A DNA stretch of 64,000 nt from Alphaproteobacteria bacterium (GCA_047517345.1 JAKZTB010000036.1:1503-65502); one strand, 5' to 3'. Shown: positions 6,413 through 63,984, counted from the stretch's first letter. Program-made: numbers and translations. The notes: generated from the letters alone by a model not told the origin.

Positions 6413-6766
6413 ATGCGAACGGCATTCGAGCGCCTCACCCGGCGTGCTGAATTCCGTCGTCTGACCCGGTCACGTCAGCGTTGTGCCACGCCGGGGCTCG
6501 TTCTCCAGACCATCGCCCAACCCGGCAGCGACGGCGAAGCGCGGGTCGGTTTGACGGCAAGCCGCCGCGTCGGCAACGCCGTTCGGCGAAATCGCGCAAG
6601 GCGGCGCTTGCGTGCGCTGGCGGAGAGCGTTATCCCTCTCCATGCCAAGCGCGGTCGCGACTATGTCCTCATCGCACGCTCGGCAACGGTGGACAGGCCC
6701 TACGCGGCACTTGTCGAAGATCTTGAAACCGCGATGAAGCGGCTCGACGTATGGCGGGACAACTGA
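6413..6766 (+). CDS. rnpA: ribonuclease P protein component
   Basis: 117-aa basic protein directly after rpmH. It carries the RnpA motif region (SRRVGNAVRRNRARRRLR). Confidence 0.9.
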   Translation: MRTAFERLTRRAEFRRLTRSRQRCATPGLVLQTIAQPGSDGEARVGLTASRRVGNAVRRNRARRRLRALAESVIPLHAKRGRDYVLIARSATVDRPYAALVEDLETAMKRLDVWRDN

Positions 6767-6767
6767 A

Positions 6768-7026
6768 ACCAACGAGCGCTGATAATGACCCCTGGAGACG
6801 GCTTGGCAAGGTTTTCCGCAAGGCGCGCGCGGCAAAGCGATGCGGTGTATCGTGAGGCGTGCGCGACGCTGTCCGAAAGCCTTGCCACGCCGCCCTTCGG
6901 GTCGCGCATGCGGCCCGGCGGAGCGTGTCGGAACGGCTTGACGATGCCCCACATCGCCGGCGCCGTCCCTCCTGCCCGACGAACCGCTTACGCGATCTCC
7001 ATGGGTCGTTATCAGCGCTCGTTGGT
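6768..7026. repeat. structured intergenic element of about 259 nt (copy 1), MITE-like or ncRNA-like, inverted relative to the copy at 15737-15992
   Basis: 30-nt terminal inverted repeat (6768-6797 vs 6997-7026, 2 mismatches). The internal cores match the reverse complement of 15737-15992. It fills the whole rnpA stop to yidD ATG spacer. Confidence 0.7.
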
Positions 7027-7329
7027 ATGAGAGTGCGTTCGATGTCTCCGGCGGTTGCCGCACTGCGGCTCACAATTCGCATCTATCAGGTCGCGATTTC
7101 GCCGTTTTTTCCGGCGCATTGCCGCTATTGGCCGAGCTGCTCGGCCTATGCGGGTCAGGCAATTGGGAAGCACGGGGCCGTGTCCGGCGGATGGCTGGCA
7201 ATCCGACGGATTGCCCGGTGCCATCCGTGGGGCGGATCGGGTTATGACCCGGTTCCAGGGGACAGTTGCGCGAACGGGCGTACGCAAAATGAGGTGACGG
7301 TGACCGAAGAAATGGAACAGCGCGTATGA
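7027..7329 (+). CDS. yidD: membrane protein insertion efficiency factor YidD
   Basis: ORF 6859..7329. The conserved YidD core ([46 protein letters not shown]) begins after the ATG at 7027 (alternative ATG at 7042). The stop overlaps the yidC ATG. Confidence 0.85.
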
Positions 7330-14886: not shown

Positions 14887-15732
14887 ATGAGCCATGCCGA
14901 ACTGCAAAGCACGATCGACGAAGCCTGGGATGCTCGGGAAACCGTTTCCAGCGAAACCCATGGCGACGTTCGCGCGGCGGTGAATGTTGCGCTCGGTCTG
15001 ATGGATTCCGGCGAAGTGCGTGTCGCCGAAAAAACCGGCGGCAACTGGCACGTCAATCAGTGGCTCAAAAAGGCGGTTTTGCTGTCCTTTCGCCTCAACG
15101 AAATGACGACGATCGCGGGTGGACCCGGCGCGAACACGACCTGGTGGGACAAGGTCCCGTCCAAATTCGATGGCTGGACGGCAAGCGAGTTCGGCGATGC
15201 CGGGTTTCGGGCGGTACCCAGTTGCATCGTGCGCCATTCCGCCTATATCGCGCCCAACGTGGTGCTGATGCCGAGTTTCGTCAATCTCGGCGCCTATGTC
15301 GACGAAGGCACCATGGTCGACACCTGGGCGACGGTCGGATCCTGTGCCCAGATCGGCAAGAACTGCCATCTGTCCGGCGGTGTCGGGATCGGCGGCGTGC
15401 TCGAGCCGCTGCAGGCCGACCCCGTGATCATCGAGGACAATTGCTTCATTGGCGCGCGCTCGGAAGTGGTCGAAGGCGTCATCGTGGAAGAGGGCGCGGT
15501 ACTTGCAATGGGCTGTTTCATCAGCTCGTCGACCAAGATCGTCGACCGACAGACCGGTGAGATCCACCGCGGCCGCGTACCGGCCTATTCCGTAGTCGTG
15601 CCCGGTGCGTTGCCGGGAGCGCAAAGCCCGGACGGCGCGCCGACGCCGAGCCTCGCCTGTGTCGTCATCGTCAAGACGGTCGATGCGCAGACCCGGTCGA
15701 AGACTTCGATCAACGAACTTCTAAGGGATTAG
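14887..15732 (+). CDS. dapD: 2,3,4,5-tetrahydropyridine-2,6-dicarboxylate N-succinyltransferase
   Basis: 281 aa with the DapD N-terminal domain and hexapeptide-repeat core ([40 protein letters not shown]). Confidence 0.95.
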
Positions 15733-15736
15733 CACC

Positions 15737-15992
15737 CTCTACCGGGAATAGGAGATACGTATGATCGCTTGTCGCATTTTCTGGGTAGGAGGCGTCGCGC
15801 TGGCGATGCGGGGACATCGTCAAGCGTCGCCGACGCCCGCCAGAGGATGTGACAAGCGACCCGCAGGGCGTGCTCCCAGGTCCTTCGGATCGCGTCGCGA
15901 ACTCCTTGTGATGCTTCCAGCATCACGGCGGAACCCGCTCCTAACCGAAGGGCCTGAGAGCGCGTCATTCGCATCTCCTATTCCCGGTAGAG
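15737..15992. repeat. structured intergenic element of about 256 nt (copy 2), MITE-like or ncRNA-like
   Basis: Perfect 20-bp terminal inverted repeat (15737-15756 vs 15973-15992) that extends imperfectly to about 31 bp. It has several internal hairpins and is homologous to the reverse complement of 6768-7026. It fills the dapD-dapE spacer. Confidence 0.75.
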
Positions 15993-15993
15993 A

Positions 15994-17148
15994 ATGCTAA
16001 CCGTGCTCGATCCGGTCGCGTATGCGCGGGATCTGATCCGCTGCCCCAGCGTGACGCCGGAAGAAGGCGGCGCTCTTGAACTCCTGCAATCCACCTTGGA
16101 GGGCCTGGGGTTCAAGTGCCAGCGCCTGCTTTTCACCGAGGACGGCACGCCCGACGTCGACAATCTTTATGCGCGATTGGGCAATAGCGAGCCCAATTTC
16201 TGTTTCGCGGGCCATACCGACGTCGTGCCGGTCGGGGCGAAGGACGAATGGTCGGTCGACCCGTTCGCGGCGGAAATCAAAGACGGTGTGTTGTTCGGCC
16301 GCGGCGCCAGTGACATGAAGGGCGCCATCGCGGCGTTTGCCGCGGCGGTCCAGCGATTTCTCGAGGACGGTCCGCCGGACGGTTCGATCAGTTTCCTGAT
16401 CACCGGTGATGAAGAGGGTCCGTCGGTCAACGGCACGAAGAAGATGCTGCAGTGGATGGTCGAAAACGGCGAGAAGATGGATGTCTGCGTTGTCGGCGAG
16501 CCAACCAACCCGATGGCGTTGGGCGAGATGATGAAGATCGGCCGGCGTGGCAGCCTGAACGGCTGGCTCACCGTCAAGGGCGAGCAGGGCCACACCGCCT
16601 ATCCGCATTTGGCGGATAACCCGGCGCATCGTATCGTCTCCTTGCTGGAGGCTATTACGGCAAAATCGATAGACGACGGATCGGACTTTTTCCAACCGTC
16701 GACATTGCAGATTTCGACGATCGATATCGGCAATCCGACGACCAACGTCATCCCGGGCGAGGCGCGTGCGACCTTCAACATCCGCTTCAACGATTTGCAT
16801 TCTTCGGCAAGCTTGACCGAATGGTTGCACAAGACCTTCGATGCGGCCATCGGCGAGGGCGGACGCTACGAATTGGATGTCGTGGTCAGCGGCGAATCCT
16901 TCCTGATACCGCCAGGGCCGCTCAGCGATCTCGTCTCCGATGCTTGCGAGAAAGTTCTCGGTCAACGGCCGGAATTGAGTACCACGGGCGGGACGTCGGA
17001 TGCCCGATTTATAAAAGACTATTGTCCCGTCGCTGAATTCGGCCTGATCAGCCAGACGATGCATAAGGTCGACGAGCGCGCGGTCGTCGACGATATCGCC
17101 AAACTGTCTGAAATCTACGAGGCGGTCCTGCGCGGCTATTTCCAATGA
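15994..17148 (+). CDS. dapE: succinyl-diaminopimelate desuccinylase
   Basis: 384-aa M20 peptidase with DapE motifs ([33 protein letters not shown]). Confidence 0.95.
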
Positions 17149-17711
17149 TTGCCCGCCACGAAGTCCTGCTGTCGCTCTACGGCGCGTGGCGCTTGTTCAT
17201 TCGGGACCCGAAGGGATTCGAATGGCTCGACGATTCTATCGAAGGGTATTGGAAATCGTTTTTCTGCGCCGTCGTGGTTCTGCCGGCTTATGTGTTTTGG
17301 TTTTTCCTGAGGGACGGCGATTCGAGCGATGCGGGCGTCGTCCGGACAATTACAGTCGAGGGAATCGCCTACGTAATTTCGTGGGTCGCCTGGCCGCTCA
17401 TTATGGCCTACATCGCGCCGGCCATCGACCGCGACAAAAACTATATCCGCTACATCGTCGCGTATAACTGGTCCGCCGGTATCCAGGTCGCCATTCTCAT
17501 GCTCGTCCTGACGGTCGAGCTGACCGGCCTCGCACCCGGCGGTATACTCGTCATCCTCACCTTGATCATGACCGTCGTGATATTTTTCTATCACTGGTAC
17601 GTGTTGCGAATTGGGCTCGAAATCTCCAGCCTGCCGGCAGCCGCGCTGGTGGTCGGCGATTTCGTCCTCGCCCGTGTCATCCACGGCGTCAGCCAAGGCA
17701 TTCTACATTAA
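17145..17711 (+). CDS. hypothetical integral membrane protein
   Basis: 188 aa with about 5 predicted TM segments. Its ATGA overlaps the dapE stop. No family recognised. Confidence 0.6.
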
Positions 17712-59469: not shown

Positions 59470-59574
59470 AGCCCGTTGCGAGGTTCCGGCGAATCCCTAT
59501 ATCTTGCTGTTCCGGGCTCCGGCCAAAATAAGTAAATCAGCGGCGCGCCTCGCGCGCGTACGCCGGGAAGGAAA

Positions 59575-61485
59575 ATGGCGCTCGACATCGATACATTCAG
59601 CAACGTGTCCGGCGGATTCAGCTTTTTCAAGGCTGTCGGGCATCCGCTTGCCGCGCCGAAAATCCGCAGCTTGTTGGAGCGGCTCGAAGGACCTGTCGCG
59701 GTATACGATCCGGCGGGCCATGCCACGGCTTTCGCCGCGCTGCACGACATGGCGGCGCTACAGATTGCCGGAGTCTTCGTGCAGGATTTGAGCGCGATCG
59801 GCGCGCCGGTGCTGGGGCACGCCGCGCAGCCTGTTACGGCGTTGCCGGACGCCGGCGCCGGCAACGTGCTGGTGCTCGCCTTCGACGCCGAACGGCTCGT
59901 CATGCACATCCGCCACCTTGTCCCCGACGGGGTGGAAATCGCCAGCCTGGACGATGTGCGCCTGGACGACGCAATGATCACCAATCGCAGACACTATTTG
60001 GATCCGGTCAATTTCGCGACCAACTTCGCCTTCTTCCGCGATACCGAAACCGACCACACGCGGTTGGTGACAGCCAATTATTGGGCCGGCTACGGCGCGC
60101 AGAACACGCGGATCCGGTTCCTTTTGTTCGACGAAAACGGTTCGTCTATCGCCGATTGGTCGCAGGATCTTCCGCCCGGCGTCGGCACGGTGACGGTCGA
60201 CAGCCGCGCGGTGCGCGCGAGGTTCGGTTTGCCCGCCTTTACCGGCCAGCTGTTCATGCACGTCATCAACGGTGCGGGACACGACGTCGTCAAGTACGCG
60301 CTCGACACTTTTGGTGATGCGGCTACCGTGTTGTCCTGCACGCACGACGCCAACGCCTGGCCCGCCGACCTCTACGCCGGACTGCCCGCACCGGAAGAGG
60401 GTGGACAGGTCGTCCTTTGGGTCCAGAACAGCCATCCCTGCCCGATACCGGCCGGCGCTATCGGGCTGAACCAGATGGGCCGCGACGATGTCGCGACTCT
60501 GGACCGTGAAATTCCGCCTTTTGGAAGCTACGCCCTCGATATGGCGGAACTGCTGCCGGATCTCAAATGGCCGGCGCAGGTGGAGATTCGGGCCGGCAAG
60601 CATTTCGTGCGGCCCCGCTACGAAGTGCGGTCGCCGACCGGGCGGCAACGTATCTCCCACCCGAACGTACAGCGTACCGACCTCAAACCCGATCCGGCTA
60701 TAGCGGGAATCGGGAATTTTTTGGGCAAGGGCTTTCTTTTACCCGCGCCGGTACTGCCGATCGACCGGTTCCGGACAACCGTGTTGCCGACACCGATGTC
60801 GACGGCACAGGACACGTTGCCCGTTGCAGGGCTGCTGTATGACGCCGACGGCCGCAAGGTCGCGGAGCATGCTTTCGGCAATCTCGCACGCGATCATTGC
60901 GAACTTCTGGAAATCGATGCCCTGTTGAACGGGACGGCGAACGCGGCGCTGGAACGGGGTTACGGCCATATCGAGCTGGTCTACGATTTTACGCAAGGCG
61001 GCGAAGCGGACGGCTGGCTGCACGGATTGTTTCGTTACGAAGACAGAACGAACGGCCATGGCGCGGACACCAGTTTCGGCGCGCATATCTTCAACACCGT
61101 CCTGACCTACCGCAGCGAGCCGCAATCCTATTCCGGACCCGCACCCGGCCTCACTACGCGCCTGTTCCTGCGTCTCGGCACGGCGCCGCTGGAAACGATG
61201 TGCCACCTCATCTATCCGGCCTCCATGCCTTGGAATACAAAATCCGATACCCATCTTCTCCTGTATGATGGCGGCGGCAACGAAATTGCCGACCATAAGG
61301 TAGCAATACCTTGCGGGGGTTCTCTATATTGGCGTTATGGTGATCTGTTCGGCGCAACGGATAAGGCGGCTGCCGGTGACGACGGATATGTCATAATTCG
61401 AGATCAAACCTGCCGGCTTTTCGGCTATCATGGACTGCAGAACGGGGTAGAGAGCTTCAGCTTGGATCATATGTTCGGCTTCTAG
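59575..61485 (+). CDS. large conserved-looking hypothetical protein (636 aa), no recognisable domain
   Basis: Uninterrupted ORF with genome-typical codon and GC pattern. It has no TM segment or signal peptide and ends ..FSLDHMFGF. Confidence 0.65.
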   Translation: MALDIDTFSNVSGGFSFFKAVGHPLAAPKIRSLLERLEGPVAVYDPAGHATAFAALHDMAALQIAGVFVQDLSAIGAPVLGHAAQPVTALPDAGAGNVLVLAFDAERLVMHIRHLVPDGVEIASLDDVRLDDAMITNRRHYLDPVNFATNFAFFRDTETDHTRLVTANYWAGYGAQNTRIRFLLFDENGSSIADWSQDLPPGVGTVTVDSRAVRARFGLPAFTGQLFMHVINGAGHDVVKYALDTFGDAATVLSCTHDANAWPADLYAGLPAPEEGGQVVLWVQNSHPCPIPAGAIGLNQMGRDDVATLDREIPPFGSYALDMAELLPDLKWPAQVEIRAGKHFVRPRYEVRSPTGRQRISHPNVQRTDLKPDPAIAGIGNFLGKGFLLPAPVLPIDRFRTTVLPTPMSTAQDTLPVAGLLYDADGRKVAEHAFGNLARDHCELLEIDALLNGTANAALERGYGHIELVYDFTQGGEADGWLHGLFRYEDRTNGHGADTSFGAHIFNTVLTYRSEPQSYSGPAPGLTTRLFLRLGTAPLETMCHLIYPASMPWNTKSDTHLLLYDGGGNEIADHKVAIPCGGSLYWRYGDLFGATDKAAAGDDGYVIIRDQTCRLFGYHGLQNGVESFSLDHMFGF

Positions 61486-63907: not shown

Positions 63908-63984
63908 GGGCCCGTAGTTCAGTTGGTTAGAACGAACCGCTCATAACGGTTATGTCGCAGGTTCGAGTCCTGCCGGGCCCACCA
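63908..63984 (+). tRNA. tRNA with CAT anticodon (elongator Met or lysidine-modified Ile2), CCA encoded
   Basis: 77-nt cloverleaf: acceptor GGGCCCG/CGGGCCC, D arm GTTC-AGTTGGTTA-GAAC, anticodon arm AACCG-CTCATAA-CGGTT, T arm GCAGG-TTCGAGT-CCTGC, then ACCA. The G1-C72 pair excludes an initiator tRNA. Confidence 0.9.

Follow-up and report, generated by a model that had tools for sequence, protein, structure and literature searches.

Two copies of a mobile repeat lie in the 64,000-nucleotide stretch of alphaproteobacterial DNA analysed here (the window). They belong to an undescribed MITE family that targets TA or TNA. A DDE transposase of the kind found in the PIF/Harbinger-IS5 group probably mobilises it in trans, and its fold plausibly averts polarity. 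The element shows every testable feature of a MITE: it is short, at less than about 600 bp, and non-coding, has terminal inverted repeats, is flanked by TA or TNA duplications, occurs in many copies, and has empty counterpart sites. A sequence-only reading of the window had preferred a structured RNA, or a structured single-stranded DNA transposition intermediate, to an ordinary MITE. By the terms that it set for itself this preference does not hold, since we found dispersed copies, termini conserved within subfamilies, target duplications and an empty site. The family provides an unusually clean case of a bacterial MITE that is under strong structural constraint and sits on stop codons within essential, coupled operons while the host survives.

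The two insertions in the window

The limits of the first copy were obtained by comparison with relatives. At five orthologous loci, whose DapD proteins are 90-92% identical to that of the window, the dapD-dapE junction lacks the element, and dapD and dapE are 2 nt apart or overlapping. The junction in these relatives reads ...gac TGA cc GTG ctc gat ccg..., with TGA-cc/gc-GTG across the five loci. In the window it reads ...gat TA/G CACC CTCTACC...GGTAGAG AATGC/TA A cc GTG ctc gat ccg, where the slashes after the first TA and before the second mark the ends of the insertion. This comparison places copy 1 at 15732-15997 (266 bp, + strand, CTCTAYCG end type, in the orientation of dapD-dapE transcription), with its TA duplicated from an ancestral TAA stop. 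The left target TA (15730-15731, +) forms the present dapD stop TAG together with G15732, and the right target TA (15998-15999, +) is followed by A-CC-GTG, that is, by the rest of the ancestral TAA stop and the dapE GTG at 16003. With these bounds, element sequence includes the last base of the dapD TAG as well as the ATG listed as the start of dapE (15994). The upstream gene, dapD, encodes tetrahydrodipicolinate N-succinyltransferase and occupies 14887-15732 (+). The dapE ORF (M20 peptidase) is listed at 15994-17148 (+), and, judging from the aligned junctions, its ancestral start was probably the GTG at 16003. The ATG inside the element is in frame and 9 nt upstream of this GTG (15994-16005); its use would lengthen DapE by three residues (M-L-T). 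The local annotation is thus corrected: element sequence makes up part of the dapD stop and the apparent dapE ATG, and in the ancestor 2 nt lay between the two genes. A 188-aa gene with no Pfam family (17112-17708, +) directly follows dapE in all of the relatives.

Copy 2 lies at 6767-7027 on the - strand (261 bp), has the main TACCAAGG end type, and carries a mutation of its first base to A. Its 3-bp target duplication consists of a TGA at 6764-6766 (+), which is the stop codon of rnpA (RNase P protein, PF00825; 6413-6766, +), and a TGA at 7028-7030 (+), with the yidD ATG at 7042, 11 nt further on. Matched to the family profile with nhmmer, copy 2 scores 236 bits on the - strand versus 70 on the +, and so runs opposite to rnpA-yidD-yidC transcription; copy 1 scores 107.8 bits forward versus 30.5 reverse. 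Copy 1 and the reverse complement of copy 2 align over their whole length at 55% identity. The inverted homologue that had been described at about 6768-7027 is thus real, and its three conserved blocks are exactly as reported. An element of about 256 nt in the dapD-dapE spacer had likewise been correctly recognised, including its perfect 20-bp inverted repeat (15737-15756 with 15973-15992), but the empty site and the flanks move the bounds to 15732-15997 and 6767-7027. A metagenome contig (L004:816-1423) contains the same rnpA and copy 2 but departs from the window about 4 nt past the end of the element (7031), which reflects either a contig assembled as a chimera across the repeat or recombination of one copy with another.

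Copies, hosts and target duplications

Further copies were sought with a core pattern of two conserved blocks, GCGACCCGNAGGGCG and, after a gap, TTCGGA. This pattern occurs in at least 120 stretches of metagenome contigs, and 91 among the matches listed have the family spacing and clearly homologous flanks. A stricter form of the pattern gave 45 stretches in 13 genome assemblies. All 13 are uncultured MAGs, labelled Rhodospirillaceae, Rhodospirillales, Inquilinaceae or Alphaproteobacteria, with one Hyphomicrobiales; the assembly MH-Pat is probably that of a bacterium living in symbiosis with the sponge Mycale hentscheli. The homology search that the sequence-only reading had proposed, run as an nhmmer profile search of the fetched sequences, found about 158 distinct places (from the matches listed), and the dapD-dapE comparison that it had also proposed yielded the five junctions without the element. 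Among the fetched sequences, 71 full-length copies are tightly grouped at 261 bp, the typical length (266 bp is that of the copy 1 subtype), and about 30 contigs terminate within a copy, which is typical of a repeat at which assemblies break. Copies are found in both orientations relative to host genes. Searches of the literature for a described family returned nothing specific, and BLAST found no match to either copy or to five end types among plasmids. BLAST of copy 2 against phages and a search of viral contigs with the core pattern were equally negative. The family is previously undescribed and is alphaproteobacterial, with uncultured hosts; as a repeat it breaks the assemblies of little-known marine, sponge-associated and soil alphaproteobacteria.

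The same core stands behind at least five unrelated end sequences. The main type has the form TNA-TACCAAGG...CCTTGGTA-TNA, also written TNA-TACCAAGGAGCGYTGATAGTGACCC...GGGTCACTATCARCGCTCCTTGGTA-TNA. Other end types with the same interior begin GTACCC, CTCTAYCG, GAGCGTTTTCC (inside a CTAG) or GGTCATGGAC, and all are flanked by TA or TNA. The CTCTAYCG type of copy 1 also occurs at L027 and L154, from a sponge-symbiont MAG. The terminal stems of the two window copies had been called completely different. Their sequences do differ; the difference is, however, not one of local compensation but of end-type subfamilies, since each type is conserved in other genomes (that of copy 1 at L027 and L154, that of copy 2 as the main TACCAAGG type).

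In 32 of 63 independent insertions the 3-mers on the two sides match exactly, where chance would give 19.7 (permutation, p = 1.5e-4), and these identical flanks include TCA/TCA and TGA/TGA pairs. Ten TAA...TTA cases are better read as a 2-bp TA duplication, so that the duplication length is mixed. At L154, the second copy of the copy 1 subtype, there is no clean duplication. The TCA...TCA and TGA...TGA pairs flank TACC...GGTA and GTAC...GTAC ends (L041, L156, L111, L142, L035 and copy 2 of the window), and a strict TA duplication is impossible for these insertions. A MITE derived from IS630/Tc1-mariner was rejected on this ground, as its strict TA duplication is incompatible with the TCA and TGA duplications. 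Copies that stand back to back or 1-1.5 kb apart were seen at L057:1036-1325, L098:470-760, L041:2617-4568 and L163:3773-4925; in the back-to-back cases the second copy begins in the TAA duplication of the first, which suggests that a further copy can insert into the TNA that an earlier one has duplicated.

Two kinds of variant were also observed. At L077:2189-2496 and L111:1087-1393 part of the left arm is swapped for an unrelated G+C-rich hairpin (ggtgtccccccgacacc...), with core and right arm intact. At L150:1597-1633 a 31-bp mini-palindrome, TAA-TACCAAAGGTCA-CTGATAA-TGACCTTTGGTA-TAA, consists of the outer terminal repeats only. It retains an intact TAA duplication, lies on the stop codon of an upstream ORF (988-1599), and looks like the remnant of a full copy after internal deletion.

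Insertions are concentrated on the ends of genes. In 26 of the 63 elements the stop codon of a long ORF (at least 100 codons) falls exactly in the duplicated triplet; 27 long-ORF stops occur at the offset of the duplication versus at most 5 at any other offset. Beyond the element a co-directional ORF starts within 150 nt for 20 of these 27 stops and within 9 nt for 10 of them, and these ten are former stop/start-overlap junctions of the TAATG kind. TAA and TGA are stop codons and the duplication restores the stop, so that surviving copies accumulate there. Selection may also have contributed, by purging insertions elsewhere in a gene-dense genome of 62% G+C. In the terminal repeat one frame contains TGA-TAG-TGA and another TAG, and translation that reads through into the element is therefore halted at once. 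Essential genes lie downstream in both window operons, and the insertions are thus evidently non-polar.

Conserved fold and its symmetry

The copy 1 segment has a minimum free energy of -162.6 kcal/mol, whereas its dinucleotide shuffles average -99.5 +/- 5.4 (z = -11.7), and its opposite strand folds equally far from expectation (z = -12.8). All of the internal pairings that had been listed from the sequence alone occur in this minimum-free-energy fold. The outer helix, P1, is formed by the terminal inverted repeats at 15732-15764 and 15965-15997 (both +), which pair through 3 bp, 2 mismatches, 20 perfect base pairs (15737-15756) and an imperfect inner part; the 3' strand includes the in-frame ATG at 15994-15996. 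Within P1 lie two arms separated by a small hairpin. The left arm (15765-15859, +) has a covarying basal stem, an internal loop GGGTAGGAGG / CGACGCC and an apical hairpin GGCGATG-CGGGG-CATCGTC. The central mini-hairpin CCC-GCA-GGG (15860-15868, +) stands at the four-way junction within the invariant core GCGACCCGNAGGGCG. The right arm (15869-15964, +) has a covarying basal stem, the conserved segments TTCGGA / CGTCGCG / CGCTCCT / CCGAA, and a hairpin GTGATGCT-TCC-AGCATCAC.

This cloverleaf-like architecture is shared by the family. An alignment of 60 copies from all subfamilies (A2, 271 columns), folded with RNAalifold, gave a consensus of four helices, namely P1, the left arm, a 3-bp hairpin CCC-NNN-GGG (columns 134-142) and the right arm, with no unpaired bases at the junction. 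P1 corresponds to the inverted repeats, of about 32 bp, and is closed at the last base beside the duplication; columns 2-32 pair with columns 240-270, and 96.4% of the cells in this helix are paired. Compensatory changes were found in 66 of the 94 pairs. Over the whole fold 96.6% of cells are paired, versus 83.6% in shuffled alignments and 34-45% when the partners are slid, and the covariation score is 0.363 versus 0.121 for shuffles; none of 500 shuffles reached the observed values. Double changes affect 15 of 21 basal pairs in the left arm (helices 2-5) and 12 of 18 in the right arm (helices 7-9), and the basal stems of both arms are nearly fully replaced between subfamilies with complementarity kept. 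The claim that stems differing between the two window copies still pair within each copy thus extends to 60 copies, beyond both shuffled and slid controls, and the covariation pattern bears out the related argument that simple decay of a MITE would not produce such pairing. A single long hairpin, in which the left half would pair with the right, was rejected because the basal stems of the arms are not mutually complementary and each covaries locally.

The nucleotides of loops and junction are near-invariant. Among them are GATCG, GGGTAGGAGG, CGATG...CATCG, CGACGCC, GCGACCCGNAGGGCG, TTCGGA, CGTCGCG, CGCTCCT and GCCGAAAAC. Conservation is therefore reversed relative to an ordinary MITE, with loops and junction near-invariant across subfamilies and terminal repeats almost completely different. 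The pattern suggests that the cis-determinant under conservation is a folded single strand and not the ends of the duplex.

The fold has a pronounced symmetry. The family profile matches both strands of each copy, at about 280 bits forward and about 100 reverse, and the folding energies of the alignment are -289 and -293 kcal/mol for the two strands. Whichever of the two strands is folded, its 5' arm is where G-U pairs are concentrated (151 G-U versus 28 A-C forward, 166 versus 26 reverse); the 3' arm holds the mirror A-C mismatches, and P1 is symmetric. The equal strand energies and the mirrored wobble bias indicate that the element is an inverted duplication of one arm module, and each arm module is constrained on the strand running inward from its nearer end. 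The same two observations led us to reject a one-strand RNA gene or any overall strand preference. The symmetry fits transcripts entering from either side, and equally an end-specific single-strand transposition step. Two Shine-Dalgarno-like strings are conserved, AAGGAG in the 5' terminal repeat (TAGGAG in copy 1; A2 columns 4-9, window 15750-15755) and GGGTAGGAGG in the internal loop of the arm (A2 columns 55-62, window 15787-15796). Both are mirrored on the other strand, and no conserved ORF follows either of them.

Mobilisation, tolerance and known systems

A mixture of 3-bp TNA and 2-bp TA duplications suggests the PIF/Harbinger-IS5 group, which makes both. The duplication lengths of IS5 subgroups are consistent with 3-bp TNA or 2-bp TA. 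Harbinger elements make 3-bp duplications and their relatives duplications of 0, 2 (TA) or 3 bp, and Harbinger and related superfamilies have been placed in joint trees with the prokaryotic IS5 family (PMC12730594). The mobilising enzyme would be a DDE transposase of this type, encoded elsewhere in the genome. As the sequence-only reading had stated for the window, neither a transposase nor a reverse transcriptase was found by Pfam among its 40 large ORFs, which are housekeeping genes (panC, argB, fmt, rmuC, ubiD, cytochrome bc1 genes, rpoD, dnaG, carAB and greA among them). Neither the window nor the fetched flanks, about 1 Mb in all, contained an autonomous element or a transposase with the same termini, and a fuzzy search for solo or distant terminal repeats likewise revealed none. 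A search for inverted repeats 0.6-3 kb apart, covering all loci and the window, returned only pairs of neighbouring copies, the 31-bp remnant and one unrelated element, and an all-against-all BLASTP for repeated ORFs near copies returned only orthologous housekeeping genes. The unrelated element is 980 bp long, with 21-bp terminal inverted repeats (TAGGAGTTTTATCCGCAGATG), and lies at L038:3890-4870, a locus that had matched the search pattern by chance. A 649-aa ORF at 59536-61482 (+) of the window has a high third-position G+C and no Pfam family.

Under the MITE reading, the fold, with P1 closed at the duplication and a four-way junction within, would have been kept because the element is read through in operon mRNAs in either orientation. 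An untranslated spacer of 260 nt would invite Rho. An RNA that is compact, fully paired and free of terminators would escape polarity, and P1 would bring the upstream stop and an embedded ribosome-binding site back beside the downstream start, the pseudo-dyad symmetry making this bridging independent of orientation. A precedent exists in gene 38 of phage T4, where a hairpin bridges the ribosome-binding site and the start codon. On this model, insertions within operons plausibly do no harm because the element folds compactly. If the fold both prevents polarity and keeps coupling, it would explain the tolerance of operon-internal repeats and offer a compact genetic part.

Two explanations that tie the structure to an RNA or protein product of the element were weighed. 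A locus-specific structured RNA, whether it regulates dapD-dapE in cis or is a small-RNA gene of its own, would account for a highly structured element that fills an operon spacer, but is refuted by the empty junction in close relatives, and the family occurs at about 158 unrelated places in either orientation to host genes. Terminator-like sites are lacking from both copies, and the one promoter-like match is a weak one (9/12) on the - strand in copy 2. As had been supposed, the element is not a known non-coding RNA: at the gathering threshold the sole Rfam match in the whole window is a tRNA gene (63908-63981, +; 72.6 bits), and around copy 1 nothing relevant appears at E up to 10. We consider this explanation highly improbable. 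The chance that the element encodes a small protein is close to negligible. ORFs of 79-81 aa do span both copies on either strand, but the two 81-aa products are unrelated (E = 0.22), variability across the three codon positions (0.63, 0.59 and 0.59) has no 3-nt periodicity, and at 62% G+C it is no surprise that all six frames are open. Moreover, the modal length of 261 nt is not kept in 17 of 60 copies; 13 of these are off by 1-2 nt, differences that break any reading frame.

The remaining alternatives concern why pairing is preserved. Covariation could be a by-product, if the arms of the palindrome are homogenised by hairpin-templated repair or replication slippage and the element is otherwise an ordinary selfish MITE. 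Private substitution rates per column are indeed alike in paired and unpaired columns (0.33 and 0.40), as in neutral decay, many of the private changes are nonetheless doubly compensated, and the 31-bp hairpin remnant with its intact TAA duplication (L150) shows hairpin-driven deletion. Homogenisation leaves unexplained, however, why loops and junction are far more conserved than stems across subfamilies, and why the 5' arm of each strand accepts G-U and not A-C. Both features argue against it as the whole story, and we regard it as unlikely. To about the same degree we doubt that junction and loops are the real cis-determinant, whether through an as yet undescribed structure-specific machinery that mobilises a folded single strand or as a mobile RNA "splint" that rejoins the stop and ribosome-binding site to the start and lets operons survive an insertion of either orientation; if the splint reading were true, the elements would be natural, portable, orientation-independent intercistronic insulators. 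Structure-dependent mobility as such would have the folded strand, DNA or an RNA copy, recognised by an HUH/Y1 transposase as for IS200/IS605 or REPIN-RAYT, a recombinase or another hairpin- or junction-specific enzyme. It would fit the invariance of the junction and loop nucleotides while all stems, the terminal one included, vary and still pair, the sharing of one core by at least five unrelated ends, the strand-specific wobble pairs of each arm, the compensation of 32 of 72 changes private to one copy in paired columns, and the want of a DDE partner in the window or its flanks of about 1 Mb. The fixed, statistically supported TA/TNA duplications speak against it in its known Y1/HUH forms, as Y1/HUH single-strand transposition is not known to leave a target duplication. 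In addition, there is no conserved GTAG-type cleavage tetranucleotide, no gene for such an enzyme stands beside any copy in the flanks of about 1 Mb, and no Rfam ribozyme family matches. Structure-dependent mobility is, on this balance, quite improbable.

Among the closest known systems are the Tourist-type PIF/Harbinger MITEs and the bacterial IS5-family MITEs (IS1031/IS427/ISL2), which like the present element are short, non-coding and multicopy, and have terminal inverted repeats. They also share its 3-bp T-N-A or 2-bp TA duplications (PMC12730594 for Harbinger and relatives). They differ in combining conserved ends with a free interior, whereas here a conserved four-way-junction interior is combined with unrelated terminal repeats, and neither the window nor about 1 Mb of flanking sequence yielded an autonomous relative of the present element with the same ends.

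Retron non-coding RNAs were rejected as a match, as the window has no reverse transcriptase and the element is multicopy with target duplications. Several palindromic repeats of other bacteria are alike in part. The Correia/NEMIS elements of Neisseria have a TA duplication and terminal inverted repeats, lie beside or between genes, and are co-transcribed to give long-hairpin transcripts; they are about 100-155 bp long and form a single hairpin, with an IHF site and RNase III processing. The element resembles them in its TA duplication, terminal inverted repeats and gene-adjacent sites, but is 261-266 bp long, has a four-way junction, belongs to another host clade and shows no sequence similarity. 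ERIC/IRU-type MITEs of enterobacteria, 127 bp long and folding as a simple hairpin, are imperfect palindromes conserved across genera that occur within operons, in both orientations, and presumably exert their effects through the mRNA; we know of no stop-codon preference described for them. The element is also palindromic, operon-internal and found in either orientation, without sequence similarity to them.

REPINs, which are mobilised by RAYTs, and IS200/IS605-derived elements consist of dyad-symmetric hairpin pairs with compensatory arms, and the single-strand fold is thought to be the substrate. They have no target duplication and no long terminal repeats, carry a GTAG-type motif, and coexist with a RAYT or TnpA gene. 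Dyad-symmetric hairpin modules and compensatory evolution of the arms are shared with our element, but an origin from either group was rejected, given the target duplication, the lack of a shared GTAG-type motif and the lack of a repeated ORF by the copies. Rickettsia palindromic elements insert in frame within coding sequences and are translated. Both they and the present family are alphaproteobacterial palindromic mobile repeats that survive where gene function is spared; the present element differs in that it halts translation, through TGA-TAG-TGA, TAG and the duplicated stop, and sits at the ends of genes.
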